DNA of 64,000 nucleotides from Massalongia carnosa (lineage: Eukaryota): positions 1,302,001 to 1,366,000 of the forward strand of contig OZ287075.1 of the NCBI GenBank assembly GCA_965645245.1, read 5' to 3'. Made by a program: the position numbers and the translations under genes. The notes beneath the pieces were generated by a model that was given only the letters and a program-made list of their open reading frames with translations, searched no databases and was not told the DNA's origin. The stretch's first letter is position 1. Every line of letters begins with the position of its first letter. Shown here in pieces: positions 22 through 45,985 of this stretch.

Positions 22-348
22 AGCAGCAAGAAAAGAAAAACCGCCCCAGCCGGCTCTCATGAAGTATCGCCGGCAGGCCCAAGCCGCCCAACAGGAACGT
101 CGTGGAAGGACACAGAGATCATGAAGCCCATGAACATGCAAAGAGCAATGGCAAAGCCCATTCTAGGCAGACCACCCAACACGTCAACGACGATGGCTGC
201 AACACCCGCCCCCACCCGCACCAATCCCGCCGCCCACCCGCTGCAACCCTCCCCGCCGACCCCCGACACACCTCCCCCCCTCGACGACCAAGGACTAATC
301 ACCCGCACCGCTCCTGCAACGGACGTAATGGAAGAAGGATGTTTATGA
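22..348 (+). pseudogene. C-terminal remnant of LINE ORF1 (gag-like)
   Basis: Open frame from the element's 5' end (SSKKRKTAPAG...ILGRPPNT...VMEEGCL*); its stop lies just past the ORF2 ATG, as is usual for LINE ORF1/ORF2 junctions. Confidence 0.6.
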
Positions 349-15800: not shown

Positions 15801-16495
15801 CTGCCCTGAGGCAGCAGTTCTACGTCAAAAGACGGATTCGTCGATATCTTCAGGGGAAGGCGAATGAGCAGGGGAGGGATCCGTGGAATATTGCGCGGGA
15901 AGTTGACAGTTTGAGGCTCTCTGGACATCAGATCTCTAAGCGTATTGACGCTGGAGAGGATCTGCTTCGTAGATAGATCAATGATACTACTCTTTCTCTC
16001 TACGAGTACTAGTCATGAAGGCCTGTAACACCGTTCTTATTAAGAAGCGATCACTCGTAATGTGCCCGTAGTACCTCCTTCTCGTTCCTGTGACTGAGTG
16101 GGACATCTTGTGACGAGGCGTGCAACTGCATCACGTATCGCGTCATCAGTGCTACGTTAATTCTATTCGGGGTAAGATACTTCTTCTATTCAGAAGAAGC
16201 TCTTTTCAGCAAACCCAGTTTCAAAATTCTAGCAAAACTCCTTTGTGGTTCGATTGCGAAGCGCAAATGTCGACTTTCGCAAATCAGACAATTCAGGCAC
16301 GGGTTTACTCGTTGAAGGATGCTCTATTTAACGGTTTAAATTGCTTCAAAATAAAAAATTTTCTAGACTACAACTTCGGGTTACTAATGGCGTGACAAGA
16401 AAAAATCGCGGGATTTGGGATTTTAAACGGATAATTATGGCCTATCCCTACAATAGTATAATCCAAGCCATAGCACAAGTATTGTGGTCTCGCAT
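12837..16495 (+). mobile_element. Crypton-type tyrosine-recombinase DNA transposon (boundaries tentative)
   Basis: GC-rich block containing the YR gene; tentative ends ATGCGAGGCCA (12837-12847) and TGGTCTCGCAT (16485-16495) form a 10/11 inverted pair. Confidence 0.6.
13155..15976 (+). pseudogene. Crypton tyrosine recombinase (Ndc10-domain-2-like) with C-terminal GCR1_C-like domain, disrupted
   Basis: LRTRLDFLLMHSMMLRGESTR, NEGSEC, YPLGALAHWLVLRW, KTVHIMR, RAGGW, TNYLTHLP, LRCVFLQDAALL, C-terminal SLDELDRLFGAKWR...QQFYVKRRI; introns near 13420, 13760 and 14660; frameshift near 14000; TGA at 14637-14639 and 14888-14890. Confidence 0.85.
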
Positions 16496-25200: not shown

Positions 25201-25380
25201 GGCTAATCTGATGAGTAAGCGAAAAGCGTGATGTACAAGGTAGTTATCAAAGAGAGTTTAGCGATCTCCGCCCGTATTGTACTCCGTACGTGGGGCAAAC
25301 CCCTCATTGTGGGAATAAAAGTCGGATCTGTCCAGTTACTTTCTTTAGTACTCTATCTGTACCTCATACAATTCTGCATC

Positions 25381-26554
25381 ATGTCAACTTCACTGGACCA
25401 ACTGAAAGCTACCGGTACCACGGTTGTTTGTGACTCCGGTGACTTCGAGACCATCGGGAAATACAAGGCTCAAGATGCTACAACAAATCCCTCCTTGATT
25501 TTGGCTGCGTCGAAGAAAGAAGGGTATGCTAAACTGGTTGATATCGCCGTTGATTATGGCAAGAAGAACGTCAGTGATGCTGTACCTATAACGAGAATTT
25601 TTCGAATACTACGCCCGATGTCATTGACGATTGGATAAGCTGATTGGTTGATAGGGTAAAGATATAGATGACAAGGTTGATTCAGCACTCGATCGATTAC
25701 TTGTGGAATTTGGAAAGGAGATCCTGAAGATTGTGCCTGGAAAGGTGTCTACCGAAGTAGATGCTCGCTTCTCTTTCGACACGAAAGCCTCAATCCAGAA
25801 GGCAACACACATCATCGACGTAAGCAAACTGTCTTGTGAAGCCAAAAGTGCATAAATAATAAAAGGCAACAGCTTTATAAACAACTTGGCATTGGCAAAG
25901 AGCGAATCCTGATCAAGCTTGCGTCAACATGGGAAGGAATCAAAGCCGCTCAGATCTTACAGAAAGATTACAACATTAACTGCAACTTGACACTCATGTT
26001 CTCTCTCCCTCAAGCTATTGCCGCCGCTGAGGCCGGCGCGTTCCTTATTTCGCCTTTTGTTGGCCGTATCCTAGACTGGTACAAGGCCTCAACGAAAAAG
26101 GATTATAGCCCCGAGGAAGATCCTGGGGTCAAGAGTGTGCAGGCCATCTTCAATTATTACAAGAAGCATGGTTATAAAACCATTGTAATGGGGGCAAGTT
26201 TCCGAAATGTAGGGGAAATTACAGAGCTCGCGGGCTGCGACTACTTGACAATCTCGGTTTGTTCAGCCATTTCTCATTGTCCAAACCAGCGCATTATCTA
26301 ACTATCCCCATTTCTAGCCCAATCTCCTCGAGGATCTCTTCAACTCGACCGAAAAAGTAGAACAGAAGCTTGACTCCAAAAACGCTTCAAACCTCGACAT
26401 TCCCAAGAAATCCTACATCAACGACGAGTCACTGTTCCGGTTTGAATTCAACGAAGAGACCATGGCGGTGGAAAAGTTACGGGAAGGCATTTCGAAGTTC
26501 GCTGCTGATGCGGAGACTTTGAAGGGTATTCTCCGTAAAAAGATTGAGGCTTGA
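25381..26554 (+). CDS. TAL1: Transaldolase (4 exons)
   Basis: [60 protein letters not shown] (catalytic Lys), [32 protein letters not shown]. Confidence 0.97.
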
Positions 26555-26910
26555 TCGTTTGATATTAATGATAGTGCATGTATTAATGATATTCTTTGTG
26601 CTACAGATTGACAAAAACAAGCCAGGTAGCTCCAAGTAGATGTTGATCAGCACTCCCGTGTTATCACTGTTACCTTATTCCCATGCGTCTCGATATCAAA
26701 CCGACGACTCAACATCTATATAATCAGAAATCTATTTATATTCGGCAAACCTTCCCCAATTCTTAGCGCCGTCTTATCTGTTGCTAAATATGTCCGAGTT
26801 CAAGTATCCAAACGAGAAGTCGTGTAGTAGAGACCATCAGCTCGTTTGAAAGGGCCTCCAACCTATATCGTGCCCTCTCAGCCCTAGAAGCTTCCTCGCA
26901 AGCTCCGTCT

Positions 26911-27856
26911 ATGGATTCATCCCTTGCAGGCCGAACTGCAATCGTCACCGGCGCGGGCTCAGGTACGGATACATAAAGCTTGATACATTACCCCTTGCTT
27001 GCCCCTCGTCTAGTTAAAGTTGAATTTCGCAGGCATAAACCTTGCCTTTGCACGCGCGCTCCTGGCGAAGAGCTGCAATGTCGTCTTCGCAGACTTCAAG
27101 CTACGAAGGGAGTTGGTTGAGCATCATTTTCACCCCTCCACCCTAAGCTCCTCCATAAACTCCTACCCCACCGCAAGAGCCGTGTTCCAAGAAACAGATG
27201 TAAGAGATTGGCGGCAGCTAGAGCGTCTGTTTGAGGTAGCAACCAAGGAGTTGGAGGTGCAGATATTGTTTGTCCGGGTGCTGGAATTTATGAACCAGCG
27301 CGTATCCTTCAACTCTAGCTTTGAGGCTTCCTCTTCGTTAGAACTAAATTTCCGTCTCCCCTATTGTTCTAACACGTACACAAACAAAACTAACTTGTCA
27401 CCTTCCAGCCATTTCCCAATTTCTGGCTCCCGCCCGGCCAGCCGCCTTCAACTGACACCCCCTCTACATATGCAACCATTGACATAAACCTCACCCACCC
27501 AATCCGTACCACCCAACTGGCCCTTTCGCACTTCCTCTCCACCCTTCTAAAGTCAATAATCCACATCTCCTCCATGGCAGGCCAAGCGATTATCGTCGCT
27601 AACCCGATTTACAACGCCACTAAACATGCCATAAACGGCTTCGTGCGTAGCCTCGCGCCCCTCGAGGAGCGGCTGGGCGTGCGCGTTATGGCGGTCGCGC
27701 CGGGCGTGATCAAGACGCCGTTGTGGACGGATAACCCGGAGAAGTTGAAGATGATCGGGAAGGCGGTTATCTAGGTAACGGCGGAGGAGGTAGCAGAGTT
27801 GATGGTTAGATTGGTGGAAAGGGGGGAGATAGTGGTTTTGAGGGGCAATGAAACAG
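26911..27856 (+). pseudogene. Short-chain dehydrogenase/reductase, 5' part, interrupted by the composite MULE
   Basis: MDSSLAGRTAIVTGAGSG|INLAFA, GGADIVCPGAGIYEP (after a 1-bp frameshift near 27250), IIHISS, YNATKH (YxxxK), VAPGVIKTPLW; TAG at 27772-27774 where Trp is expected. Confidence 0.9.
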
Positions 27857-29733
27857 CGAGATGCTTAGGGACAGTCCCCCCGACCGTCCCCCCCCTGTGT
27901 AAATCTTTACTAGTAACAGTTACACTACGTATTAATAATGTTGACTAAGTGTATTCAACATCTACAAAGCTACCTATTGCTATGAGTTCAACTCCAAAAA
28001 CTCGTCAGCCAATTGCGATAAATCATCTTTTCTAGGCTTCATGGTTTTAGCCACTTTTCTCATCGCCGTTTTCTTTCTCGCTTGAGCCCTAGCCTGTTTG
28101 ACTGATTTCTCGACTCTTTGCTGAGATTCCAACTCCAACTGAGCCTTTGATTTCTACGCCACACCCCGAGACCTTCCCGTTGTTGCAGAGGAAGTAGGGA
28201 GAATTTGACTGGCGCGCACGTTTTGGCTAAGACTATAAAGAGATGGAGGCGGCGCTGCCTGAGGTAGGGCTTTTTGACTATGCTTGGCAAGCACATCGTT
28301 AATATCTTCGAGCGCATCCGACGAGGCTTCTGATGTAAGAATAACATCATTGTCGTCATTCGAAGGAAGCATAAGACCCATAGAACGACCGAGAATGGGC
28401 TGAGTGCTTATACTCTGCACCTCGTCATCGTCTTCGGAGACGATAGACGCGTTTTCGATTCTCTCCATAACTAAGTTTTCTCCTAAACCTATTGTACCCA
28501 ATATTAGCCGACCCGAGCGCAATAACTTTGCAACATCGTGAGTTTTACCTTCTGTTTCACCTTCAACCTCATCGTCGCCCCCAGCACGCAATCTATTATA
28601 TCTAAGCCTCCTCCCTTGTTCAATAGAGTCCCTTCGCCTAGTACGTCGCTGTTCAGTTTCTCTGGCCTCAGCTGCCTCGCGACCAGTGTAGGCACGTCGA
28701 CGACTCCCTCGTTTCTTATACATGAGGTTTTCTTTGGGCCGAATTTCGTCGGGGAATGTGATGGGGATGAGAGGTCTTATCAGCTCCTTCTTTTGCCATT
28801 TCTTATTGAACTTTTCAACGATGTGAGGATGCTCGCGAGCGTACTCCTCCCTTCGATGAGAATCTTCTATTGATTGATGCAGGTCAATAGATTGATATGC
28901 CACAGAATGTAGCAAATCAAGGCGCCCGCGGCGAAATCTATCCTCACTCAACACGCCTTCTTCGAGCTCGAGCTCATCCTTACATATTCGCCTCAATCTC
29001 TCTCGTCCCTTCGACCTCATCGACGATCTTTTCGACCTCGGGCTCCGAGCCGCGAGATCGAAGGTCATTTGTCAAGAGACCGCATAAGGTTGGCCATCAA
29101 AAAACCAGCGGGGGTGGGTGAGGGAAACGGGAATAGGGATCGAGTCGATGATGCATTATACAATCAGCATTTGCATGGGAGACCGTACCTTAAAGGCAAT
29201 TCACAATCATAAACACAGCTTTCATCATCAGGGACAATTGAAAGGATTCGTTCAGCTAATGCTTTGGCGGCATCGAGTGCTCTTGGAACGAGGCCAATGG
29301 CATGATGCGTAATTTTCCCAATGAGTAGCGTAAAAGCATTTTTATCTATCAATTTAGGATTGCGTATTCGCTGTTGATTGCACAAAATCTCCTGATCTAA
29401 TTGTTTTTTCCGCACCTCATCACATATTTTCTGCACCGATTGTCTTATAGAAGTGTTTCTATTGATCACATTTTTAATCAATGAATGCAGACCTTCTGAA
29501 CGCTGTGTGTTGTGTGCGCCTAAATTAGGGAGTTTAGTAGTATATGCATGCACGAATTGAATTTCTTGATGTTGATATAGAAATTCATGAGATAATCCTG
29601 CGAAAGAGATAGCGTTAGCCGAGTAGGATAATTATAAGTAGCAATAACACGTCATACGATTTAAACCGAAAAGAGTTTAATGTGCTGTTGACAGTTGCAT
29701 TACTAGCTTGTACGCACCCTAGATGAGCAGTTG

Positions 29734-30252
29734 TATTGGAATTTGCCGAGATACCTGAATATTTGCGACCGAGGTTCTTTTGCCTCCTGCTTACTAATTT
29801 CCAGATTAGGCAATCATATGCTATATGCGAAAAGCTTCAGATATCGGCACGACTTCGGCAACTACGAGGAGGCAAAGGTATGCAGCAAGAATGCTACATT
29901 TCGGAGGCAATTCAGCTGTTCATGATCACTGAGTGTCTCGGTGTCTCCGGTCAGCAGTGAGGTGTATTTTGCCCAGCTGAAAAGGTTTAAAGGAAGCAGG
30001 TTCATGCATTTGATATAGGCCGAGATGGAGGCCCTCAAGCAGTATAAAGAGACGGTGATTCCTCATGTAATTTAGCTATTCAGTCGTTCAGAATTCAGCT
30101 CAGCAGATAGCTAAATTTGAAGTATCTTCACTGGAAATACGGAGTACCTGCATCACGTTTGCCAAGCACTTCTCTTTGCCTATCCTTGATAGCCCTAGAC
30201 CCTCTTCTCCTGCATCCCGCTGCCGTATGCCTGGTTGATTTTTTGTTCAACA
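29734..30252 (+). repeat. Copia 5' LTR
   Basis: TATTGG...TCAACA; matches 34638-35156 with one difference seen by eye. Confidence 0.95.
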
Positions 30253-30397
30253 GGTTATGAGCCCGGATAGCACTCTATTCAAATCCAGGAGTATTTATCA
30301 CTAGATCTTTTATCTTAGGGGATATAGCCCGTGTGCTTGTTTGAACTCCTAGCTATCCATTTCGGCACTCGAATAGGACGACTCCTTCACCACCAAA

Positions 30398-33300
30398 ATG
30401 TCTGCCTCAGAAGACAGCCAAGATACCGGAGGTGCCATGAGGGCATCCACCACCCCCGAGGCTAGCAAGGCCTCCTCATCAAAGGACAAGGGCCTAGCGG
30501 CTATGATAGCCATTGATGGGGGATATAAAAGGGGTGCCGGTGTGAAAGGTGAAGTAAAACTGCCAAAACTTACTAGCGACAACTACAGGCTGTGGTCCCA
30601 CCTTTTGAAGGTGCACTTAATTGCCAAAGGGCTCTGGAAAGTAGTCAGTGGAGAGATACTCGAACCACCAGGAAGCATGCCTTTGGATAGAGACTCGTGG
30701 ATCTTTGATGATGCCACAGCAATCACCATCCTCATGGGAGCCATGGACGAAAGGCAGCAGAAGCATGTGCAACTGCAGCAATCTGCCAAAGGGGTATGGG
30801 ATGCCCAAAAGGAAATTCACGGCAAAGACTCCAGGACACGCTTGGTCCCCATGCTCCGCCGATTTCATACGTATAAGGCCAAGGCAGAGGAAGGAGTGGA
30901 TGAGACTGCAGCAGAGCTAGAAGATATGAGAGATATCATCGCAAACATCAACCCAGAGGTGAAGCCATCCGATATCATGATGGCCCTAGTCCTAATGGAT
31001 TCGGTGGATCACGAGCGGTTTAATGCGGTGAAATTGCAATTAAACGACTTGGAAAACCTCACGTTTCGGAAGGTGATTGAAAAATATAAGGAAATCGAGC
31101 AGATGGCCAGAGATAACGCGGGGACCCCCTATGAAATCGCTAATAAGGTCTCCGCCAAGCCCTATAAGTTTAAGGGGAAATGTTACCACTGCAAGAAACC
31201 TGGTCACGTGAAAACCAAGTGTTTTGAATGGCTTGCCAGTGACGAAGGCAAGGCCTACAATGAAGATACCGCCAGCACGGCCCAATCAAAGGGCAAGAAA
31301 GCCAAGGACGGAGGTAAGGGAGAGGAAAAGTTAAGGGATGGCAGACGTGGCAAGGGCCGAGGAGGTCACCTTGCACGCAAAGCATCCGGCACAAGGGACA
31401 GCGACAGTGAGGATAGCGACGACGAGTCAGTGTACGGTCGCATGGCCATTGACCACGTGGACCAGAGCGACCATGAGGATTACACCGACTACGTCAACAA
31501 TGGGGCGCGCTATCGCACTTCCCAGAAGTGCTCCTCCCCTAAGAGTTTTGCTAGAGTGGCAAAACTCACTTCCAAAGTAATACCCCCGAATGAGTGGATT
31601 ATTGACTCAGGGGCCAGTCGCCATATGACGGCCAATCGGAAGCTATTCACAAACTTTACACTGCAGGTAAGTTGGGTGACGATAGCTAATGGGGTAAAGA
31701 TTAAATCACCTGGTAAAGGTGATGTGGCTGTGGAGCTGGAGGATAAGAAGTTCAAACTCACAGAAGTGTTATACGTACCTGAGCTGGATGCGAATTTGTT
31801 GTCAATTTCGGCATTACAAGCTAGAGGAATGATTGTGAGGTTTGGATTGAGTTGCGTCGAAATTTTGAGGAGAGGTACCTGCCTCGCCACCGGGTTTTTG
31901 GTGGGAAAAACGTACCTGCTCCGATCCGCAGGAAGCGGAGTGGCCCTGATAGCCACTGAGGATCCCGAGGAAGAAATCCCTATTACTTCTGATCCAAATA
32001 TCAGCGAAAGATCGTCCGGAAATCAGAATTTGCCAAGAATGCCAGAAAATGCAAAAGACAACAAAAAAGCAATTAGCACTCGGTCCCAATTAGAAGGAGA
32101 CCGATACCTACTATGGCATGGCCGCATGGGGCACGTGGGAGCATACAGACTCACTGTCCTCCATGAAGCCACTAATGGAGTGGGAGCCAAGTTACATGAC
32201 CATGAGAAGGAATGCAAATGCATCACATGTACTCAGACGAAAATGACTCGAATAATCAACCGAAACCCACCAGAACGGGCTACCCGCCGTCTGGAACGAG
32301 TCTATTCAGACTTTTGGGGTCCATATCGGGTGCCCAATAACCAGGGGACCAAGTATTTTGTGTCCTTTACCGACGAAGCCACCGGCTACTCGGATGTTTA
32401 CCTCGGGGCCAGGAGCGAGCTAGAAAAGCTCTTTCGGATGTTCAAAAATCGTGCCGAGATCGAGACAGGGGAGCGAATCAGGACCTTGCGATGTGATAAC
32501 GCTTTGGAGTATGAAAAACTGGCTAGAACGATATTGCCGGAAGGAATAGTGGTGGAGTTTACCACGGCCTATACCCCTGAGCAGAATGGGGTTGCAGAAA
32601 GACTCAATAGAACGCTGATGCAGATGGTATCAGCGATGCAGATGTGGTCTGGGTTGCCTAGGTCATTTTGGGGGGACGCAGTACTGACTGCCAATTATCT
32701 GAAGAATCGGCTTCCGTCGAAGCGGTTTGATATGAAGACCCCATATGAGATGTGGCACCAGAAGAAGCCAGAGGTAGGCCATATAAGGACCTATGGATGC
32801 CTCGTACACGTGCACGTTCCTAGCGAAACTCGTGCGAAGATGGATAAGGTATCCCATCAGGGAATTCTCGTTGGATTCCGGTCATCAAGACAGTATAAGG
32901 TGCATAATCCTGATACGAAAACAGTGGGAGTACATACCTCAGTGAAGTTTTTCGAGGATTGGCCAGGAGGCCCTTTACTGAACGCACCAGTGGAACCGGG
33001 TGAGTGGGAGTTAGATGTTGCAGATTCGGACTACGAACTGGATGAGGAACAAGGAGTTCCTACGCACAAACTTACCAACCCTGAGACAGCCTTAGAGTTT
33101 CAGGGAACATCAAACCTAGAAAATGACGACGCAATAGTTCTAGGCGATAATGTTCCCGGAGAAAGTATTGAGGGTGCAGAGAATCCCTCACTGAATGAAG
33201 GCGATATTCCCGGAAATCGCGAAACTCCGGGAAATCAAGAAGAAGGAAACGAGACCTCGGAAACTGAAATCCGAGCGCCAGAATTCGAAGGTCTGCCGAC

Positions 33301-34327
33301 TACTGGGCGAAATTCGCCAGAGCCAGCACAGAATTCAAAAAGGGGGCAGAAAGCCACGCTCCCACCGAAAAATCAACAGCTTGTTTCCGCAGCATCTTCC
33401 CGGTCAAGACGCACGAAAAAGCCGTATGACTCCAAGGCATTTGATAAGTCAAAAGCACCAATGGCTATCGTTTATATAGCTCGATTGCCTGAACCGGCTA
33501 CCTATAAGGAAGCCATGACTGGACCAAATCGCCGTGAATGGAGGGGGGCAACGGAAGAAGAGCTGGAAGCGCTGCGGTGGAAACGCACGTTTATTATCGT
33601 GCCGAGGCCGAAAAACCGTGAGCTAATAACTTCGAAATGGGTGTTCAAAATCAAATACACATCCGCCGCAGTTATTGAGCGGTTCAAGGCCAGACTTTGT
33701 GCTAGAGGTTTCAATCAGAAATATGGCATTGATTACGAAGAGACATTTGCACCCACCTTGAGGTTCGAATCTCTGAGAATGTTAATGGCAATTACTGCGT
33801 TACTGAACCTGGAAGCACATCAAATGGACGTTTCAAATGCCTATTTAGAAGGTGAGTTGGAAGAAGAAATCTACATGGAAATACCAGAGGGAATGGATGT
33901 TCCGAACGAAAAGAATAAGGCCCTTCTACTGCAAAAAGGCCTTTATGGTCTCAAGCAATCCGGCCGAATCTGGAGCAGAAAGTTCAGAAGGTATCTGAGA
34001 TCCATTGGATTCGAACCAATCTCAGCCGACAATTGTGTGTTCATAAACCTCCAAGCCGGCGTCATTATCTCAGTATACGTCGATGATCTTCTCATTTTTA
34101 CCGCCAAAATATCCCGCATCAATGCAGTCAAGGCACAGCTAAAACGGGAGTCTAAGATGAAGGATTTGGGAGAGGTGGACCACATCTTGGGAATGCGAGT
34201 GCGGAGAAACCGAAAATCTAGAAATCTAACACTAGATCAGTCAGTATACATCAACAACTTCAATTCGAAATATGGGATGGAAAATGCACACCCAGTTTCA
34301 ACTCGATTGATGGATATGCAGCACTGA
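30398..34327 (+). CDS. Copia gag-pol polyprotein (gag, Zn knuckle, protease, integrase, RT), C-terminally broken
   Basis: CYHCKKPGHVKTKC, WIIDSGAS, WHGRMGH..CITC, YSDFWGP/CDNALEY/EQNGVAER, KARLCARGF, YVDDLL; frameshift near 34305, then only the RNase H tail (IAADILTKPL...*, ends 34483). Confidence 0.92.
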   Translation: MSASEDSQDTGGAMRASTTPEASKASSSKDKGLAAMIAIDGGYKRGAGVKGEVKLPKLTSDNYRLWSHLLKVHLIAKGLWKVVSGEILEPPGSMPLDRDSWIFDDATAITILMGAMDERQQKHVQLQQSAKGVWDAQKEIHGKDSRTRLVPMLRRFHTYKAKAEEGVDETAAELEDMRDIIANINPEVKPSDIMMALVLMDSVDHERFNAVKLQLNDLENLTFRKVIEKYKEIEQMARDNAGTPYEIANKVSAKPYKFKGKCYHCKKPGHVKTKCFEWLASDEGKAYNEDTASTAQSKGKKAKDGGKGEEKLRDGRRGKGRGGHLARKASGTRDSDSEDSDDESVYGRMAIDHVDQSDHEDYTDYVNNGARYRTSQKCSSPKSFARVAKLTSKVIPPNEWIIDSGASRHMTANRKLFTNFTLQVSWVTIANGVKIKSPGKGDVAVELEDKKFKLTEVLYVPELDANLLSISALQARGMIVRFGLSCVEILRRGTCLATGFLVGKTYLLRSAGSGVALIATEDPEEEIPITSDPNISERSSGNQNLPRMPENAKDNKKAISTRSQLEGDRYLLWHGRMGHVGAYRLTVLHEATNGVGAKLHDHEKECKCITCTQTKMTRIINRNPPERATRRLERVYSDFWGPYRVPNNQGTKYFVSFTDEATGYSDVYLGARSELEKLFRMFKNRAEIETGERIRTLRCDNALEYEKLARTILPEGIVVEFTTAYTPEQNGVAERLNRTLMQMVSAMQMWSGLPRSFWGDAVLTANYLKNRLPSKRFDMKTPYEMWHQKKPEVGHIRTYGCLVHVHVPSETRAKMDKVSHQGILVGFRSSRQYKVHNPDTKTVGVHTSVKFFEDWPGGPLLNAPVEPGEWELDVADSDYELDEEQGVPTHKLTNPETALEFQGTSNLENDDAIVLGDNVPGESIEGAENPSLNEGDIPGNRETPGNQEEGNETSETEIRAPEFEGLPTTGRNSPEPAQNSKRGQKATLPPKNQQLVSAASSRSRRTKKPYDSKAFDKSKAPMAIVYIARLPEPATYKEAMTGPNRREWRGATEEELEALRWKRTFIIVPRPKNRELITSKWVFKIKYTSAAVIERFKARLCARGFNQKYGIDYEETFAPTLRFESLRMLMAITALLNLEAHQMDVSNAYLEGELEEEIYMEIPEGMDVPNEKNKALLLQKGLYGLKQSGRIWSRKFRRYLRSIGFEPISADNCVFINLQAGVIISVYVDDLLIFTAKISRINAVKAQLKRESKMKDLGEVDHILGMRVRRNRKSRNLTLDQSVYINNFNSKYGMENAHPVSTRLMDMQH

Positions 34328-34637
34328 CTGCCGCCACCCCCACGGAACCCAGGACCGACCAACTGGAGTATCAGAAAAAGCTATGATCCCACCAACGAGA
34401 TAGCAGCTGATATTCTGACAAAGCCTTTGACCAAGGCGGCTTTTGAACGCGGACGTGCTCTACTAGGTATGAAGGAGACCTAGAGAGTTAGCGATAGTTT
34501 ATCGCAACCACATCGGCCCACGAGGGCCCATGGCCTACCTGAGCATCGTGTTCAGATGGGCAGAACGCGGAGGATTTCTTTTAATTCGTTTTCGGGCATG
34601 CGAGGGTATGAAGCCATTCAGATACTCGGAGTGGGAG

Positions 34638-35156
34638 TATTGGAATTTGCCGAGATACCTGAATATTTGCGACCGAGGTTCTTTTGCCTCCTGCTTACTA
34701 ATTTCCAGATTAGGCAATCATATGCTATATGCGAAAAGCTTCAGATATCGGCACGACTTCGGCAACTACGAGGAGGCAAAGGTATGCAGCAAGAATGCTA
34801 CATTTCGGAGGCAATTCAGCTGTTCATGATCACTGAGTGTCTCGGTGTCTCCGGTCAGCAGTGAGGTGTATTTTGCCCAGCTGAAAAGGTTCAAAGGAAG
34901 CAGGTTCATGCATTTGATATAGGCCGAGATGGAGGCCCTCAAGCAGTATAAAGAGACGGTGATTCCTCATGTAATTTAGCTATTCAGTCGTTCAGAATTC
35001 AGCTCAGCAGATAGCTAAATTTGAAGTATCTTCACTGGAAATACGGAGTACCTGCATCACGTTTGCCAAGCACTTCTCTTTGCCTATCCTTGATAGCCCT
35101 AGACCCTCTTCTCCTGCATCCCGCTGCCGTATGCCTGGTTGATTTTTTGTTCAACA
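34638..35156 (+). repeat. Copia 3' LTR
   Basis: Direct repeat of 29734-30252, followed by the TSD AGTTG. Confidence 0.95.
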
Positions 35157-35590
35157 AGTTGAATGGCTGTTTACTAGCTAAGATTTACACAGGGGACGGG
35201 ACTGTCCCTAAGCATCTCGCACTGGGAATGGCCTCACGGAGGCGAAAAAGGAGGATATTACATTATCAGGCTATGCGGCGACAAATTCCCATCAGCCATC
35301 TACGGCGTATCCAAACGCAGCCTAAATTCTTGATTGCAAGCTAACTTAAAGTAAAAGGCACCATCACGCGAAAAAAAAAAACTCTGTCTCACCCGGATCC
35401 TCGCTTAGAGACTGTCAACCTACATCCTGGTTGAACCGTCACATGTCATGTATCTTTATACGCGTACTAAATCTTGATGTATTAACCGCTACGGGCATAA
35501 CATACCTGTTGCTTAGAATACGGGCACGCTGGGCCAAAAAAAGTTTCACATCAAACCTGTGACGGTTCTACCAGGATGTGGAATTGACTA

Positions 35591-36564
35591 CCGAATTATT
35601 TGACAGATAAAACCCCCCTCCAGTCTAAGACCCCCCCTGACCATAAAACCCTGTTCTGATTGACTGATTTCTGACCATGGGAGGGGTTGGCCCATAAAAC
35701 CAGGTCCTTTCGAATGAAAAGGAAAGATACATAAATTTATATGCAAACGTCATTAAAGCTTATGTATCCTTTCTCAGAAATCAATTGAATCGGGAATTTA
35801 ATCCTTCTCCTTATCCTTCAATTCATCATCACTTGCATGTTCTGTTATATGACCTTCGAATATACCTTCCATCACATATTCCATGTCTTCAGAAGCAATA
35901 TTTTCAGCCCCTACCGTCTCCTTCATTCCATTCACGTCTGAATGAGTTTTAAACCTCCATCCTTTTGCTGCTTCCAGGTGGTCTCTACATAACTAACAGC
36001 AGCTAATTTCTGCTCTCTGGTGTAGGAAATACGTCGTCGCACCTCATCCTCGTCATCGAAAGCATTGTTAATTAAATTGTGACCTTCCACCTCGCGATGA
36101 AGACGAAACTGTTCCACAATCTGAGTCTCCTGATCGCCAGAGAAAGAGGTCGGTACGATGGACATGGAAGGCTGAATATACACGTTCTTAGAAATTCGGC
36201 CTGATTTATACTGCGAAGACTTGAAGCCTTCACAGCAGGCCCAGGACGAGGCTGTTTTGAAGCCAGCATAAGATTCTGAGTATGAGGAGGAGCCATAACA
36301 ACAAGAAGAATATGAGTTGCTGATGAACTGAGTCAAAAACGTTTTTTTTCGAGACAAGAGTTCAAAAAATGCACGCAGTTCAGGAGGGTGCACGATGCAA
36401 ATTTAATGCGCGTTTTTCGTGTTTATAGGGGCTGACTAATGCTATCTCGCCCATAAAAATCCCCCTATATGATAGACCCTATAGCCCATAAAACCCTGTC
36501 CCAAATGACCTCCAGGCGATCAATTGACCCATAAGACCAGGTTTTTATCTGTCAAATAATTCGG
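35591..36564 (-). mobile_element. Non-autonomous pogo-like (Tc1/mariner superfamily) deletion derivative
   Basis: Perfect 22-bp TIRs CCGAATTATTTGACAGATAAAA flanked by TA on both sides; internal N-terminal HTH-like fragment (RRRISYTREQKLAAVSY) joined to an acidic tail; repeated CCCATAAAACC-like subterminal motifs. Confidence 0.88.
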
Positions 36565-37377
36565 TATCTACTGGGAAGCTATGCACTAGAAAATATCAAA
36601 GATGCAGAAAAGAAACAAGCAAAAAGGTGCCCTCTTTAGGAGTCTATATAGATAATCGCTTGGCCCGATCCAGCTGCTTGTGTCTCTATCAATAAGTGAT
36701 CAGTTTGGCCAAACAGTCTTTCTGTCCTTTGTCCCTTTCATCTATTTGTGCTTGCTTAGAAGGTCGTTCCGATGCGTCCCTTTTAGTCCTTTCAGACCTC
36801 CGTTGATGAGTTTCTGTAGGTGGAAATAAGGTTTAGCGTCCCGGAGCTTTCAGTGCTTATGTCCGTCCAATCCACCGCTAAAAGGGTTGAGTAACGGAAG
36901 TGGTTAGTGCGCCGGCAGATGCCGTACTTTCCTTTGATTGGCATTGGGTGGATGTGGTTGAATCGTGATAAAACTAAGCGAGACCGTCAAATGTCCAGAA
37001 ATGCAAAGGTTTTAGAGATTTTTCAAAAAATAACACTTCAATATTACTGCTTCAAAACCTATATACAAACTACTTGATATTAAAAGAACAATTCTATAAA
37101 ACTCGGTTTTACAATGTATAAATTTAGTAATTTAATTATCACAATTCTTTGATGTGGAACTTCTTTTGACTTCACGTGACGGGCTTTATTTAGGTGCATC
37201 TACGCAGCTGCGTACTAAGCGGCAAAGAAGCTTAGCGTTATATGATCCGACCCTTTCAATGAGATAATTCTGTAACCGTATTTGCACAAGGCTACATCCT
37301 CCTCGCACTGCTACTCTTCAGTTATACTCTATCTGACGACTATACTCCCACGTCAGGTGTTGAGGTATGTTGCAAAG

Positions 37378-40300
37378 ATGACCTCTCGGCCGTCAGACGA
37401 TGCAATCATGGGCCTTTACGTATGGCATTCCGAATTTGCGGGGCGGGAAGACAGCAAGGCTACGACAGACGAGGCTATCGAGTAAAAATACCAAGGCCTT
37501 CTGATTCTGACTTTAATGCTGATCACTGGTCAGTATCATTGCCGTGCAAGGACTCGGCGCGAGTCCATACTTTACTTGGGTCAAGAAAGTATTGATAGAA
37601 GATCAAGAGGTTAAGCAAGTAATGTGGCTGAGAGATTTGCTTCCGAACTGTGTACCCAATGCTCGGATTGCTACGTTTAGCTATTTGTCAGACTGGTACA
37701 CCTATCGAAAGGGTGTCAAAACAAGTCTTCGAGAATTGGGAGAACAACTGCTTGGCGCGTTACAGCATGATAGGAAAAAATAAATGTTCGTCTATTAAAC
37801 ATGCTCTGTAAATACAATTCAATCTCGCTTATTGTCTTTAGGCTACTCGTCGACCGATCGTTTTCATTGGTCATAGTATGGGTGGATTGGTGATCAAGCA
37901 GGCTTGTATTCACACAGTCAAAATATCATGTATCATAATTCTGACTTGGAGGCTAGGCACTGGTGCTCGCGAGTAATCGACCTAATTATGAGGATATCAA
38001 ACGGTCAACTGCGGGTATCATATTTCTCGGGACACCTCATGGAGGGACTGAAATTGCAGGCTACGCAGCATTTATTGCCAAGCTGAAGAGGAACGATCCG
38101 TCTCTGGTGGAGTCCTTGAAGCCAAGCGATAAAGATCTGTATGAATTATCACTTGACTTTGCAGTCGGATACAAGGATCTACGCATGATGTGATTTTACG
38201 AGAAATTGCAGAATGAGTATATGGATGGGCGTGCAAGAATCGAGGTAGGTATATTATCTGAGCGTCGAATTAGCTCACATGAGAAGTTAGATGGTGAAGC
38301 AGCGTTCAGCAATACAAGAGGGAAAGGACATGATGTATCTGTTTACCAATCATTCAGGACTAAACAAGTTCTCTGGAAACGATGATCCCAATTTTCAAAA
38401 TGTTCGTAAGGTAATTGAAGGAATGACCATGGATGCTTCCTCAACGGTTCGTCGAAATTATGATGGTACAAGCGATGACCCGCAAAGTCTCTGTTATCTG
38501 GTATGACTGACTTCAAGCGTCAAGGATCGGTGAAGATACGATTCACAACGGTGATGCCGTTCGAACGAGATGAAGACTTTGTTGGACGTGAAGATATAAT
38601 CAAAATGATTGATGAGAGCTTTTCGAAATCGCGATTTACCCGTCGAGTAGCTCTAGTTGGCTTGGGTGGTATTGGGTATTAAATAATTGACCTCGAATAT
38701 TCTGCGATTCTCTAATCTCGAGTAGGAAGTCGCAAATCGCGATTGAGTATGCATATCGACTGAGGCTGAGAACTCCTTCGGTTTCGCTGTTATGGGTGCA
38801 CGCTAGTAATGCTGCTCGTTTTGAACAAAGTTATCGTGAGATTGCAATTACAGCCAAGTTATCAGGAGCTGAGGATCCCAAAATTGATATATTAGGTTTA
38901 GTCTCCCGGTGGCTGGGTTCTGATGATAGCAGAGACTGGTTGATGATTCTCGATAACGCCGACGATACAAGCATTTTTTTTAATCCAAGTACCGCTCAGG
39001 TGCCTCGAGAAGGTGGAGAGATATCATCTTTGTCACGTTATCTGTCTTCAAACGCAAAGAGCTTGATCTTAATAACATCAAGAGATAAAAATACAGCAAT
39101 TCGTCTTGCAGGCAATGATGATCGTGTCTTTAGAATTAGTGCAATGGGAGAAGAAGATACCAATACGTTACTTGCAAAGAAATTACCCAATGATCAATCC
39201 AATCAAAGAGATAAGAGCGAGTTGATTAAAGTTCTTGAATATATACCGCTCGCTATTACTCAAGCGTCCGCTTACATTGCTATCAAGGCTCCAAGAATGA
39301 CAATCTCTGGTTATCTAGAACTTTTCCGCCATAATGAATCCAATCTAATATCTCTCTTGAGTAAAGATGGTGGAGATCTACGAAGGGATCCCGACGTTCC
39401 TAATTCTGTTGTGGCAACATGGCAGATTTCATTTGATCAGATCAAAGATCAGAATACAGCGGCAGCTGATCTTCTGTCTTGTATGTGCTTGCTTGATCGA
39501 CAAGGCATTCCGGGATTTCTCTTTTATCAAAGCAACAGCGGGTCGTCGATAGACTTCGAAGATTCGATTGGAACGCTGATTGAATTCTCACTTATAGTTG
39601 AGGAAAAAGAAAAGAATAGTTTTGAGATGCATCGGCTTGTACAGCTTGCGACTAGAAAGTGGCTCGAAATGCATGAGCAGATGGAAAAACAAAAGGAGGA
39701 GGTGCTCAATTTACTAGCAGACCAGTTTCCAAATGGAGAACATAGCAATTGGAAGATTTGTGAAGCTCTTGGACCCCATGCAGAGATTATTCTGAAGTAC
39801 AAGTACCTTTCTCAGCATTGCCGACTCCAACAAGCAGGGATTCTTCATAATAGCGCGTGGTATGCTTTGGCTCAAGGCAAATATGCAATAGCAGAGATTA
39901 GGATTCAAGAAGCTATAAAGATTAAGAAAGAATTACTGGAAATGGAAATTAGAAACACACTTAACAGTCTTGGCTTACTAGCATCGACATTTTGGAATCA
40001 AGGACGATGGAAAGAGGCCGAGGAGCTGGAGGTGCAAGTGATGAGGACGAGCACGAGGGTGCTGGGAGAGGAGCATCCTTCCACGCTGACCAGCATGGCC
40101 AACCTGGCATCGACGTTTTGGAATCAAGGACGATGGAAAGAGGCCGAGGAGCTGGAGGTGCAAGTGATGAGGACGAGCACGAGGGTGCTGGGAGAGGAGC
40201 ATCCTTCCACGCTGATCAGCATGGCCAACCTGGCACACACCTATAAGCTTGAGGGCCGTCACGATGAAGCTATTGAATTAATGGAAAGTGTTGTTAATCT

Positions 40301-40379
40301 ACGTACCCAAAAGATCGGGGCCAGCCATCCTCACACACTTGGGGTTGTTAATACTTTGAAATCATGGTTACACAGTTGA
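37378..40379 (+). pseudogene. Fungal NLR: SesB/DUF676-like alpha/beta hydrolase + NB-ARC + TPR; two apparent lesions in the hydrolase part
   Basis: IIAVQGLG, WLRDLLP, PIVFIGHSMGGLVIKQ, IIFLGTPHGG, NHSGLNKF; PFERDEDFVGRE, P-loop GLGGIG|KSQIA, WLMILDNADD, ILITSR, IPLAITQA, MHRLVQ; TPRs. TAA at 37781-37783 next to an A6 run, and TGA at 38191-38193. Confidence 0.9.
39981..40235 (+). repeat. Two near-identical 126-bp (42-aa) TPR coding repeats
   Basis: Units start at 39981 and 40107 and differ at two positions seen by eye; encode ASTFWNQGRWKEAEELEVQVMRTSTRVLGEEHPSTL(T/I)SMANL. Confidence 0.95.
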
Positions 40380-40581
40380 AACGAGTTTCTGACAAGAGAT
40401 GACTTCGATTTATCCTCCGGCAATAAATTATAAGCACAGCACTAAATATAAGGCTGATAGGCGGCTCTATGTATGCATCAAGATGACCTGCATCGTAAAA
40501 GTAGAGTTGTACGACTATCATGTGTGGGTAAAGATCTTATTTCGAAATATAATGAGTACACGTCATTTCTCTCCCTACTCG

Positions 40582-43500
40582 ATGGAGTTCGATCCCACTT
40601 CTTTGGATGCACGGAAGCAACATGCCATTGCCCTTCTACCCTCACCTCACCTCCTCCCTCCGCAAGAGAATGAGTTATTTTCGTCTTGGAAGGAGGCAAA
40701 GACTCGTCTTCAAGATTATGCCTTCACACAAGGCTTCGCGTTGGTCACGGAAACTCACGATAAGAAAAACCATTTAATCGTATTAGACTGCACACGCCAC
40801 CACAAAAGAGTTAGAAACACTAGAAAAGTAGAGGAGGAAGACCGGGTGCGAGCCAATACCAAAGCTTCGTTCAATGAGTGCCCTTATCACCTCCGTCTCC
40901 AAAAAAAACAAAGACAATGCATGGAGACTAATACGTTACTAACTTCGAGCACAATCATGAGATGGCCACTGATCCCTTTGCATTCAGAGAACATCATAGT
41001 AGGGACCCTGATCGAACAGACGCCCTAGATCAAGGGAAGAGTCTCCGTGCATTGTCAACCCAATATGGTCAAGCAGCGAGAATTTAGGAATCCAAGGACT
41101 CCGTCTATCGAGGAGCGATTATTATAATCTCGCTCATTCGGAGGGAGCTCACACGCCTGAAGAAGAGCTTCTTTTTGCCTTGGGCTCGTTGAAAGACAGG
41201 GGCTTTCATGTACGGTGTAAGGAAAAATATATTGTTAAGAATAATGTGCGTGAGAGACGACGGGTGAGAGAACTTTTTTTTTTGCAATGCGGAGCAAATT
41301 ATGTTAGAATGTACAAATCAGGCTACTTCATTTCAGCCGCACTCACCTTCTACCGCACAAGTATGGCGCACGCTAATGGCTAGACTATCGCTAGTCTAAT
41401 ACTAGCATACCGTACATTGTCTACTATTCCCACTATATACAACAAAAGCAAGCGTTCTATCCTCTAACTACTATACTGCCTTTTGATAAATTAGGCTGGC
41501 TCGACGTTTCGTGGGTGGGTTTTACTTAGAAACGGATGCAACGTTCAATACTAATAAATTGAACTTGCCTTTATCCGTTTTGGTTAGAATCACTAACACC
41601 GATCTTTCGTTTCCCGTCGCTTATTGCTAGTAACTTCCGAATCGGCCGAATGTTTCACTTTTATTTTCGAATGTATGAAAGAGTTGATTTTTCATGATGA
41701 CTGCCCCGGGCCTGGGGTGTTTCTCGGGGATTTTGCAGCTGGGTTGACTATAGCCATGCAAAGAAAAGCTAAAGCTTCGGCAATTGATCTCGATGCTGCA
41801 TTGACCATTACAAGAGAGGTCGCCGAAAATCTAAATCAATCAACGATGAAAGCGGGCGAGGAGAGATGCGTTTTGCAGCTATGCACGTAGCATGCGGCCG
41901 AGGCAATAAAAAAACGACTGATCAAGGCAGGAAAATATCCCCAAGAAGTGCGCAAAAAGCTGGAGACTCTGATAGAACTATGGGATTATATAAAATCCCC
42001 CATTATTGATGAGTTGGATGAGAGACGAAGAAAGTTGCTGAATGAACTTCATCCCGCAGAAAAGGTTAGTAGTGATATATCAAATTAAATTTCAAGCGAG
42101 TTAGGGCTACTGCTAACGCTACCTCTTTCGCAGGATTATCTCATGAATTTCTATCAACGTCAAGAAATTCAATTCGTACATGCATATACTACTAAACTCC
42201 TTAATTTAGGCGCACACAGCACAGAGCGTTCAGAAGGTCTACATTCATTGGTTAAAAATGTGACCATTAGAAACACTTCTATAAGACAATCCGTGCAGAA
42301 AATATGTGATGAGGTGCGGAAAAAACAATTAGATCAGGAGATTTTGTGCAATCAACAGCGAATACGCAATCCTAGATTGATAGATAAAAATGCTTTTACG
42401 CTACTCATTGGGAAAATTGCGCATCATGCCATTGGCCTCGTTTCAAGAGAACTCGATGCCGCCAAATCATTAGCTGAACGAATCCTTTCAATTGTCCCTG
42501 ATGGTGGAAGCTGTGTTTATGATTGTGAATTGCCTTTAAGGTACGGTTTTTCATGCAAATGCTGGTTGTATAAATGTATCATCGACTCGGTCTCTATTCC
42601 AGTTTCCCTCATTCATCGTCGCTGGTTTTTTGATGGCCCACCTTATGCGGTCTCTTGGCAAATGACCTTCGATCTCGCTCGCGGCTCGGAGCCCGAGGTC
42701 GAAAAGATCGTCGATGAGGTCAAAGGGACGGAAGAGATTGAGGCGGATAAGGATGAGGTCGAGCTCGAAGAAGGCGTGTTGAGTGAGGATAGAATTCGCC
42801 GCGGGCGCCTTGATTTGCTAAATTCTGTGGCATATCAATCTATTGATCTGCATCAATCAATAGAAGATTCTCATCGAAGGGAGGAGTACGCTCGCGAGCA
42901 TGCTCACATCGTTGAAAAGTTCAATAAGAAATGGCAAAAGAAGGAGCTGGTAAGACCTCTCATCTTCATCACATTCCCCGACGAAATTCGGTTCAAAGAA
43001 AATCTCATGTATAAGAAAGGAGGGAGTCGTCGACGTGCCTAATCTGGTCGCGAGGCAGCTGAGGCTAGAGAAACTGAACAGCGACGTACTAGGCGAAGGG
43101 ACTCTATTGAACAAGGGAGGAGGCTTAGATATAATAGATTGCGTGCTGGGGGCGACGATGAGGTTGAAGGTGAAACAGAAGGTAAAACTCACGATGTTGC
43201 AAAGTTATTGCGCTCGGGTCGGCTAATATTGGGTACAATAGGTTTAGGAGAAAACTTAGTTATGGAGAGAATCGAAAACGCGTCTATCGTCTCCGACGAC
43301 GATGACGAGGTGCAGAGTATAAGCACTCAGCCCATTCTCGGTCGTTCTATGGGTCTTATGCTTCCTTCGAATGACGATAATGATGTTATTCTTACATCAG
43401 AAGCCTCGTCGGATTCGCTCGAAGATATTGACGATGTGCTTGCCAAGCATAGTCAAAAAGCCCTACCTCAGGCAGCGCCGCCTCCATCTCTTTATAGTCT

Positions 43501-43756
43501 TAGCCAAAACGTGCGCGCCAGTCAAATTCTCCCTACTTCCTCTGCAACAACGGGAAGGTCTCGGGGTGTGGCGAAGAAATCAAAGGCTCAGTTGGAGTTG
43601 GAATCTCAGCAAAGAGTCGAGAAATCAGTCAAACAGGCTAGAGCTCAAGCGAGAAAGGAAACGGCGATGAGAAAAGTGGCTAAAACCATGAAGCCTAGAA
43701 AAGATGATGTATCGCAATTGGCTGACGAGTTTTTGGAGTTGAAGTCATCGCAATAG
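40582..43756 (+). pseudogene. Mutator (MULE) transposase of the right copy, disrupted
   Basis: RLQDYAFTQGFALV (N-terminal DNA-binding region), LETDATFNTNKLNLPL, FLGDFAAGL, LQLCT*HAAEA (CxxH), TERSEGLH, CELPLRYGFSCKCW; stops, frameshifts and a solo LTR insertion; followed by a TIR ending at 43925. Confidence 0.9.
41302..41488. mobile_element. 187-bp insertion, probable solo LTR
   Basis: Flanked by AATTA (41297-41301, 41489-41493); starts TGTTAGAA and ends TTTTGATA; removing it restores transposase AEQIRLARRF. Confidence 0.75.
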
Positions 43757-43925
43757 GTAGATTTATAGGTGTTGAATACACTTAGTCAGTAACAGCAACA
43801 TTAATACGTAGTGTAACTGCTAGCTTGTACGCACACTGGATGAGTAGTAAAATGGCTGTTTACCAGTAAAGATTTACACCAGGGGGGGGGGGGGGGATCG
43901 GGGGGGACTGTCCCTAAGCATCTCG

Positions 43926-44253
43926 ATGAAACAGGAGGGGAGAAGAAAGTGGTGAATGTGAAAGGCGGGATGATTTTAGAGGTTGAGAAGGGAAGGGTTC
44001 GAGTCGTTCAACAGTGAGTTTTTTCTCTTTTTTCCCTTCTACCTTCCATTGTCATTCTTTCCTCCTTTCATTCCATTCCTTCTCTTCCAGGAAGAGAGGT
44101 AATACACACAGCACGCTTACCATTCTGCAACCCTCCCCCGACACCAGGTTCACGGACAAAGGCCTGAGCAGAGACGGAAACTTAGACCCCAGCATGAAGG
44201 TCGTGGAGGATGAGATTTGGGAGCGCTTGCAGAGCGGGGGGTGGGGCCAATAG
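43926..44253 (+). pseudogene. SDR gene, 3' part
   Basis: After the TSD: (NET)GGEKKVVNVKGGMILEVEKGRVRVVQ, intron GTGAG at 44014, last exon FTDKGLSRDG...VEDEIWERLQSGGWGQ*. Confidence 0.8.
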
Positions 44254-45985
44254 ATCAGATTTTGGGGAAGCTAGTGGAAAGGGAGACTGATAATTAGATC
44301 TCTGGGACATATATGCTATTTCAAAGGGGCAAAAGCCAAACGAATGCGGGCTGGTATGCAGGATAAATGCTAATCTATTTTACCGGACTACACCAAGCAG
44401 TATGAATGAACCCAAGCAACGCTGCATTCTATATATACCAGCAACCTTCTACCCCCTTTCTCCCTTTAAATTCCCAGTGTCCCACTCCTCCCCCCTCCTC
44501 CCAGCCAGTCGGCCAACAACATTTCCAATACCCCCTCTCTTTAACCGTCTATAGCTCAGTCTAGAGAAGGGACGAATCCTGTAACTACCATATCATACTA
44601 GTTTGCTTGCGGATAAACGAATCCTTTTTCCCGTTCATCTATATCGCTCCATTCCCTTTCGGGTTGGTTCCAGCCATTCCGCCATACTTAATTACCCCTT
44701 TCGATCTTTCTATTCTTTTTCTCCTCTACGCTAGCTTCTGGGCTTCATCTAGCGTTGTATGTTGGTTGGATGGATGAAGGGATGGATGTCTGTGCTTAGA
44801 TAGGTATATGCATACACGGAAGTATTCTAGAGCTCCCGTTAACCACCGGTGGGGGTGGGGAGGAAGAAGAGGATGATGATGACGATGACAACGAGAATGT
44901 GGAAGGATAATATCAACCATTCACCAATCAGCATCCAATCCACGTATCTATACCTGAACCTCTAAGCCTATATATCTAGCCTGTCTTATCCTCCCCCCTC
45001 GTCTCAGCCCCCACTTTTCCACCCTCCCCTCCTAGCGAAACCCGCGAGCCTCCCTTCCCCGCCGAAATTTCCTATTCTCTCTCCTCTAGCACATAAAAAA
45101 TAGAGCCCCTCGCCCGCCATTCGATTGCCTAGTCTGAGCAAAGTTGATGCTTTGGACTTTGGGTCTTTGGGATAGAGTAGGTTTTGGGGGGAGGTGAGAA
45201 TGAGGGGGAAGAAGGAGGGAGAGACATCTGGCGGCTGTTTAGCGGATAGGGTGGGGTTTTGGGATGATGCTGGCTAGCCCCTGCGACTAATCTCATTCTC
45301 GTTGAAAGTTGTGCGTTTCGCATCCATCATCTCTCAGACGGAATCGTAGCTTGAGCTGCAACAAGAGTAGAGTTACCCCAAAAACAAAGGTAGGAAAGAT
45401 CTGCAAGCAAAATAGATTTCATTAATTTGCAGAACAAAAAGAGCTCTAGTTCTGAAAAGCCCTAGCTAGTTACAAGAGATCTCTAGCGGAGGTAGGAGAG
45501 CATGATAACAGCCTTAGGAAAGGCAGCGACAAGGAAAATTGACAAACTATCTATGTGAAAGAGCCATAGTATGAAAGAACACCATCACCTTCCTCTCTGC
45601 GAGGCATATCCTTACCACCTTGCAAAAAGCCACCCCCGTCCTTTGCTCCTTGGAAAGCCAGAAGTAACTCTCATCTCACCTCGTATGTTCTCTCTTCTTG
45701 AAAGCCATTCCTTCCTAAAAGGGATTTGGTTGTTGCCAAAGAACGCCATAATTGCCAGTAGATGTTGGTTATGATGTGTAAGCCCCTGGTTTCGTTTGCA
45801 AGTAGATGCACTCGGGTAATGCGCGAGCCATGTCCAGATTAGCAAAAAGGTTGAGTCGTAGTAGATGGCGAAGTGCGGTCGAAAAGCGGCCAATCATAAA
45901 TAGCGGTCGCGAAAATGATTAGAAAAGTCGATAAAGCGTAGGATCTTGATAGATAATAAGCCGTAGCCAATGAAGAGACGAGAGG

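Follow-up and report, generated by a model that had tools for sequence, protein, structure and literature searches.

In the 64-kb stretch of the Massalongia carnosa genome analysed here (the window, positions 1,302,001 to 1,366,000 of contig OZ287075.1), a short-chain dehydrogenase/reductase (SDR) gene is interrupted by a block that is bounded by termini of a Mutator-like element (MULE) and carries a fungal NOD-like receptor (NLR) gene. We infer, and consider it probable, that this block is a chimeric MULE with three termini, a macrotransposon, in which the outer ends of a left element (S) and a right element (R) were paired by a transposase acting in trans and the whole interval was moved. 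An earlier note on this DNA had proposed a composite Mutator transposon that relocated an NLR; its central idea was largely right, while its picture of two complete flanking elements has to be replaced.

The block proper (27857-43925, 16,069 bp) has inverted MULE termini at both edges and lies between two perfect copies of a 9-bp target-site duplication (TSD), ATGAAACAG. When the block and one of the 9-mers are removed in silico, the SDR reading frame becomes continuous (...VVLRGNETGGEKKVVNVKGGMILEVEKGRVRVVQQ). The eight SDR orthologues compared, which come from lichen formers and from further ascomycetes, all align on both sides of the block (best identity 71%), and the exon beginning at the right TSD is matched at E<1e-3 in five of the eight; in the protein of Usnea florida, residues 60-228 end at 27846 and residues 241-268 start at 43931. 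Because of the TSD, the restored frame and the orthologues spanning both sides, the block is a real insertion into a conserved gene. The earlier note had stated that the outermost terminal inverted repeats (TIRs) share one 9-bp TSD and that the SDR gene resumes beyond the block in the same orientation and frame; both points were borne out, and the contiguous SDR gene that the note expected in relatives is seen in the eight orthologues.

Five public runs contained part of the stretch. One of them, X1, is a lichen metagenome; of the other four, three come from organism A and one comes from organism B. Contigs of X1, X2, X4 and X5 were aligned to 26500-45500. Contigs of X1 (to 27886) and X4 (to 27880) cross the left junction, from the SDR gene into the terminus, and contigs of X1, X2 and X4 (from 43897-43900) cross the right one. 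The insertion is present in all three runs with contigs over a junction (X1, X2 and X4); among the contigs listed for X5, none lies over either outer junction. Since X1 differs from the window at 8 of 1387 flank bases (left flank piece), it is a different strain and provides independent support for the outer junctions. X1 also has a G at 27773, where the stop codon of the window's SDR gene reads TGG, and as X1 carries the insertion, the nonsense mutation postdates it and is specific to the window's lineage. With G at both 27769 and 27773, X1 encodes Val-Trp where the window SDR has the TAG.

Exact copies of a 22-nt terminus, CGAGATGCTTAGGGACAGTCCC, stand at 27857(+), 35219(-) and 43925(-), which makes three matches in the window against none expected from 100 shuffles, and no further site was found in the 64-kb window at up to 3 mismatches. 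Over their outermost 22-25 bases the three termini are identical, and their similarity extends over about 100-135 bp. At 35219, the inner terminus is followed by CACTGGGAA and no TSD is found there, just as the earlier note had read it. A sensitive search with the terminal 190-230 bp found no fourth terminus, even a degenerate one, in 35220-40620, where the best short match to the terminus was at most 13 nt long (E of at least 0.19). Directly inside the MULE terminus lies a C/G run (27875-27895 and 43887-43906) whose length varies among the three termini and the genomic copies, and indels at 27875 and 27888 occur in many contigs.

The outer arms of S and R, 27857-29620 and 42112-43925, are inverted copies with 94.9% identity over 1724 aligned bases, and the transposase reading frames of both are directed outward. 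Their global alignment holds 1683 matches, 81 mismatches (52 transitions and 29 transversions) and 72 gapped columns. Repeat-induced point mutation was considered as the source of the arm divergence and rejected, as neither the ratio of transitions to transversions nor the GC content (0.39-0.52) carries a strong signature of it. Summed contig depth over the MULE arms is far above that of the flanks in all runs (about 70-300 times the flank); it is not a copy number and was used as a lead only, with counts taken from protein look-ups. A scan of the metagenome contig collection for CGAGATGCTTAGGGACAGTCCC gave no matches, although so abundant a family should have shown up had the species been in it.

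Element S is a complete, internally deleted MULE. Its inner terminus is split by a Ty1/copia retrotransposon, and with the copia removed it is colinear with 43820-43925, which leaves an element of about 1.95 kb with two good termini. Genomic copies elsewhere continue differently to the left of 29621-29702 (loose end at 29619), and a motif taken from this loose end, with which the canonical 5' region was sought, is not found in the window. Other internal deletions occur among family members, e.g., a joint from 29450 to 29633. The copia has its own TSD, AGTTG, at 29729-29733 and 35157-35161, and an open gag-pol open reading frame (ORF) of 1316 aa (30377-34327; RVT_2, E=3e-61). It is young and arrived later, because its long terminal repeats (LTRs; 29734-30252 and 34638-35156) show one difference in 519 bp; summed depth over the copia is also far above the flanks.

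Element R is a MULE whose 5' part is missing up to a point shortly before the start codon, and it has an outer terminus only, homology to the MULE family starting at the ATG about 200 bp past the NLR stop codon. Its protein domains were sought on single ORFs, since whole frames contain stops. The N-terminal AFT/FAR1-type DNA-binding region gave an AFT match at E=4.2e-5 (24.2 bits, cutoff 21.6 bits), and homologues of R bear FAR1 and AFT. Stops and frameshifts interrupt the transposase core and are followed by open stretches of 317 and 237 aa. The MULE domain PF10551 is weak in the frame-broken window fragment 41597-41890 (E=0.038, 14.9 bits, cutoff 27.6); among homologues of the 317-aa ORF (42089-43042), it was found in five of the six scanned and above the cutoff in four. 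The MULE identity of R is a prediction from the AFT match plus the PF10551-bearing homologues. A TSD of about 9 bp is typical of the Mutator/MULE superfamily, and the locus has such a TSD, long TIRs and an N-terminal domain of the WRKY/FAR1/AFT type.

These details modify what the earlier note had made of the flanking elements. Two inverted MULE arms with outward-pointing 3' halves are indeed present, but there are three termini, R is incomplete, and 5.4 kb of what had been taken as the left MULE copy is nested copia. The comparison with a Tn5/Tn10-style pair of complete elements fails, as R keeps a single terminus, the outer one, and lacks what should precede its ATG, and S is a deletion derivative of about 1.95 kb. 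The features of the locus are compiled in Table 1.

Table 1. Features of the interrupted SDR gene and of the inserted block (positions in the window).
Feature	Position	Strand	Description
SDR 5' part (adh_short)	26911..27856	+	TAG stop at 27772-27774
TSD, left copy	27848..27856		ATGAAACAG; inside SDR exon
S, outer part	27857..29620	-	outer terminus and 1.76 kb of MULE 3' half; inverted copy of 42112-43925
S, remaining stretch	29621..29702		82 bp between deletion junction and inner terminus
S, inner terminus	29703..35219		about 100 bp (29703-29733 and 35162-35219), split by copia
Ty1/copia LTR retrotransposon	29734..35156	+	nested in S inner terminus
Left cargo	35220..37378		non-MULE, repeat-rich, high summed depth; begins with CACTGGGAA
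Non-autonomous DNA transposon	35591..36564		974 bp, inverted ends of about 25 nt, TA on both sides
NLR gene	37379..40379	+	alpha/beta-hydrolase-like N-terminus, P-loop NTPase, DUF7779, TPR_10
NLR 3' flank fused to R	40380..40581	+	translation MTCIVKVELY...SPYS
R	40582..43925	+	5'-truncated MULE (putative), ATG to outer terminus; no inner terminus
TSD, right copy	43926..43934		ATGAAACAG
SDR 3' part	43935..44250	+	exon to 44014, intron, last exon from 44146

The NLR gene of the window combines a STAND NTPase with a repeat domain, the combination by which fungal NLRs are recognised (NB-ARC or NACHT, then TPR, ANK or WD repeats). TPR_10 is matched at E=5e-36 and DUF7779 at E=1.5e-8; NB-ARC reaches E=0.054 in the window gene, and relatives with 35-45% identity carry PF00931. 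The P-loop (GLGGIG/KSQIAIEYAY) is rejoined by a clean GT-AG intron, and the TPR units, each of 42 residues, form near-identical 126-bp tandem repeats at 39956-40207. The translated N-terminus contains GHSMGG and GTPHGG motifs and gives weak PGAP1/DUF676 matches from a 20-residue exon (PGAP1, E=0.0019), and none of the large NLR homologues retrieved shares this hydrolase-like domain. As sequenced, the window copy is predicted to be unable to make a full-length protein, because it has an in-frame TGA (38191-38193), an in-frame TAA at the end of exon 2 (37781), where a usable GT donor for intron 2 is also missing, and a GC donor at 37902; it is probably dead. Summed depth over the NLR core is about 3-7 times that of the flank (a lead only).

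Other repeats make up about 2.2 kb of the cargo. The 974-bp transposon within it is missing from other copies of its flanks, where 35587/8 is joined to 36565 in X1, X2 and X4; its empty-site sequence also appears in X5 as a loose end, and subterminal CCATAAAACC motifs are present in the element. A high-copy repeat at 36644-37277, just upstream of the NLR start, reaches the summed depth of the MULE arms and contains no Pfam-bearing ORF, and many variable short replacements are seen at 36783-36891. The earlier note's account of some 5 kb of non-MULE DNA with an NLR as cargo holds in that the NLR lies inside, but about 2.2 kb of this DNA consists of other repeats, and the NLR copy has a TGA and a lost donor.

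The NLR and the joined R occur together elsewhere in the genome. At 90% identity, the NLR ORF clusters with two others, the three members lying on contigs of 2,433,384 bp (the contig of the window), 2,241,206 bp and 3,767,895 bp. The paralogues on the latter two contig sizes, P0121 and P0122, are 97-98% identical over the first 400 aa, and the next-best NLR matches anywhere are at most 60% identical, mostly in the TPR part. The paralogues differ in ending and in the number of TPR units, with about two in the window (P0001), two in P0121 and at least six in P0122, which ends in a frameshifted unit; at least two of them also have disabled-looking ends. The NLR N-terminal exon ORF forms a cluster of five members on four contig sizes; a contig of 2,110,715 bp bears the additional NLR copy.

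The joint between the NLR flank and R is itself repeated. Only four proteins have the sequence MTCIVKVELYDYHVWVKILFRNIMSTRHFSPYS (40399-40581) directly before MEFDP, the transposase start. These are P0142 in the window, P0123 and P0124 on the 2,241,206-bp contig and P0143 on the 3,767,895-bp contig, and their contigs also bear the NLR paralogues. In the family members P0127, P0129 and P0131, another sequence precedes MEFDP. A derived frameshifted ending is common to the window copy and both copies on the 2,241,206-bp contig, and canonical copies are without it. In all, the NLR-R junction is present in at least four copies on three large contigs, and NLR pieces in at least five copies on four contigs. 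As the identical joint of NLR to truncated MULE recurs at four or more loci, the NLR-R module has been amplified.

We propose the following course of events. The block would have inserted as one piece into the SDR exon, making the 9-bp TSD. It would then have been about 9.7-10.7 kb long and composed of S (about 1.95 kb), foreign DNA of some 4.4-5.4 kb, with a complete, intron-bearing NLR at its end, and R. The abundant MULE family would have supplied the transposase in trans, R's own frame being broken, and the outer terminus of S may have been paired with that of R in such a way that all DNA between them moved. Later, the copia would have entered the inner terminus of S, and disabling mutations would have arisen in the SDR gene and in the NLR of the window copy. 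The presence of the NLR-R module on several chromosome-scale contigs would most likely be due to the same mechanism. The statement of the earlier note that the whole block moved as a unit is retained in this proposal, as the block behaves as one insertion that duplicated 9 bp and further copies of the NLR-R module lie on other contigs; what is abandoned is its route through two complete elements. A more far-reaching idea is that of a working NLR shuttle in a lichen-forming fungus, in which a three-terminus Mutator macrotransposon, served in trans by the abundant MULE family, repeatedly copied a complete NLR to new chromosomes, followed by divergence in TPR repeat number. We regard this as rather unlikely; if true, a small class II element and not a Starship would be generating non-self-recognition diversity.

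Several points weigh against the macrotransposon as proposed. The arms of S and R are 5% diverged, and the outer terminus of S is without 40 nt that are found in the other two termini, so its competence is putative. S and a TSD are only putative at the left boundary of the sister NLR-R copies, as none of the six short ORFs tried within 35228-37780 has an entry in the protein collection (seven of ten exact ORF look-ups were negative), and the contigs bearing these copies were told apart by size, as a proxy for identity. The flanks of X2 and X4 are identical to the window, and these runs may be the window's own source and thus not independent. Finally, no joint across 27856/43935, as expected of an empty SDR allele, is among the 15 of 61 joints listed, a number that makes its absence uninformative on the existence of an empty site.

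A different history would have a plain MULE, S-like or R-like, inserting first with its TSD, and the NLR-R or S part being added in place via ectopic recombination, gene conversion or aberrant gap repair after an excision attempt. Summed depth points to a very abundant MULE family with many potential recombination partners, family members have other internal deletions (the 29450 to 29633 joint is one), and the arm divergence fits two source copies. Conversion, however, needs homology on both sides, so that a donor with S, cargo and R would be required anyway, and the outer termini and the TSD are intact, with no extra MULE fragments remaining as a recombination scar. We therefore judge remodelling in place to be unlikely. 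The block could also be a single MULE that moved as a unit after gaining the NLR and an extra terminus internally, in a Pack-MULE-like manner such as template switching in gap repair, in which case S and R never existed as independent elements. In plants, MULEs that bear one additional solo terminus inside have a TSD at their outer ends only, and acquisition is discussed as one origin of them (PMC3310237); R homology ends within a few bases of the ATG, about 200 bp after the NLR stop, which is tidy for two chance insertions. Yet S, taken alone, is built throughout like an ordinary deletion derivative whose two termini are both good, and the cargo, with its introns, 2.2 kb of upstream repeats and nested TA element, resembles a stretch of chromosome and not a short piece. 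Internal acquisition consequently seems to us quite improbable.

A further possibility is that the 1.8-kb inverted arms and the high-copy repeats led the assembly to join unrelated pieces. The block is almost wholly made of repeats, and among the contigs listed none spans it, its internal junctions not being seen in independent reads. But both outer junctions occur in the independent run of the diverged strain X1, the passage from the NLR 3' flank into R recurs on other contigs, and the SDR halves fit each other exactly, which makes a misassembly highly improbable. Insertion of a chimeric, three-terminus MULE as one piece remains the reading that we prefer.

Housekeeping genes, encoding a SNase-Tudor protein and a transaldolase, flank the locus (19928-22494 and 25219-26301), and the insertion thus lies in gene-dense DNA and not in a repeat desert. 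Elsewhere in the window, an open frame of 1214 aa with Exo_endo_phos and RVT_1 domains (63-3707) is apparently an intact LINE-type retrotransposon. Two adjoining ORFs at 14001-15976 have NDC10_II and GCR1_C domains, a combination known from Crypton-type tyrosine-recombinase elements.

The closest described structures are plant MULEs with an extra internal solo TIR, which have an outer TSD and none at the inner terminus, and sometimes contain gene fragments or a dead transposase (PMC3310237). The block resembles these elements and Pack-MULEs in its Mutator termini, its outer-only TSD and the host sequence between its termini, and transposase remnants with stops are likewise known from one plant type and multiple copies are likewise a sign of mobility (PMC3310237). 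It differs in being fungal, in that the gene it holds, of about 3 kb and with several exons and its flanks, is complete and not a fragment, and in that its extra terminus is part of a deletion derivative that can be recognised as complete. Second copies of the tomato solo-TIR types are rare (PMC3310237). Measured against the definition of a Pack-MULE, a host-type NLR does lie between the termini, but 3.3 kb of transposase-derived sequence is kept and the gene is whole. In eukaryotes, small cut-and-paste transposons are considered to move whole genes only rarely, and a 2024 survey describes Pack-MULEs and Helitrons as mostly carrying fragments and as seldom being longer than 10 kb (PMC11162782).

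With bacterial Tn5/Tn10, the locus has in common that cargo is bracketed by inverted copies of one element whose outer ends are used, whereas two complete insertion sequence copies are needed there and here one flank is single-ended, with no working transposase gene evident. In the macrotransposition, or alternative transposition, of Ac/Ds in maize, the outer ends of two nearby elements of the same family move the DNA between them. The joint use of two such outer ends is what we propose here as well, but Ac/Ds are hAT elements with an 8-bp duplication and their behaviour was shown genetically in plants, while ours is deduced from structure alone. Among fungal hAT elements, ToxhAT is reportedly a 14-kb element that carries ToxA. 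Transduplication of histone H3, captured as an intronless retrocopy, has also been described for fungal hAT elements (PMC6710886). In these cases, as in ours, a class II TIR element spreads a host gene in an ascomycete and the copies often decay, but here the element is Mutator, the cargo is a genomic NLR with introns in contrast to the H3 retrocopy, and neither hAT case is known to be three-terminus.

Mobile fungal NLRs have so far been tied to the giant Starships, among them Tangerine of lichen fungi (PMC13486527). The common point is that a mobile element relocates an NLR in fungi, lichen-forming ones included. The present element has no tyrosine-recombinase captain, is 16 kb long compared with tens to hundreds of kb, and is bounded by TIRs and a 9-bp TSD; no recombinase match was found in 16 ORFs in and around the block, so the earlier note's distinction from Starships stands. 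No description of a Mutator-bounded NLR in fungi was found in open-access papers and bioRxiv. The value of the case is limited in that the window NLR and the ends of at least two paralogues look disabled and S at the left edge of the other copies is putative. The locus nonetheless represents a Mutator-bounded unit with a full genomic NLR and several dispersed NLR-R copies, which offers a concrete case for studying the origin of new mobile units from additional or lone transposon ends and which, next to the Starships, would be a second, smaller route for NLR duplication.

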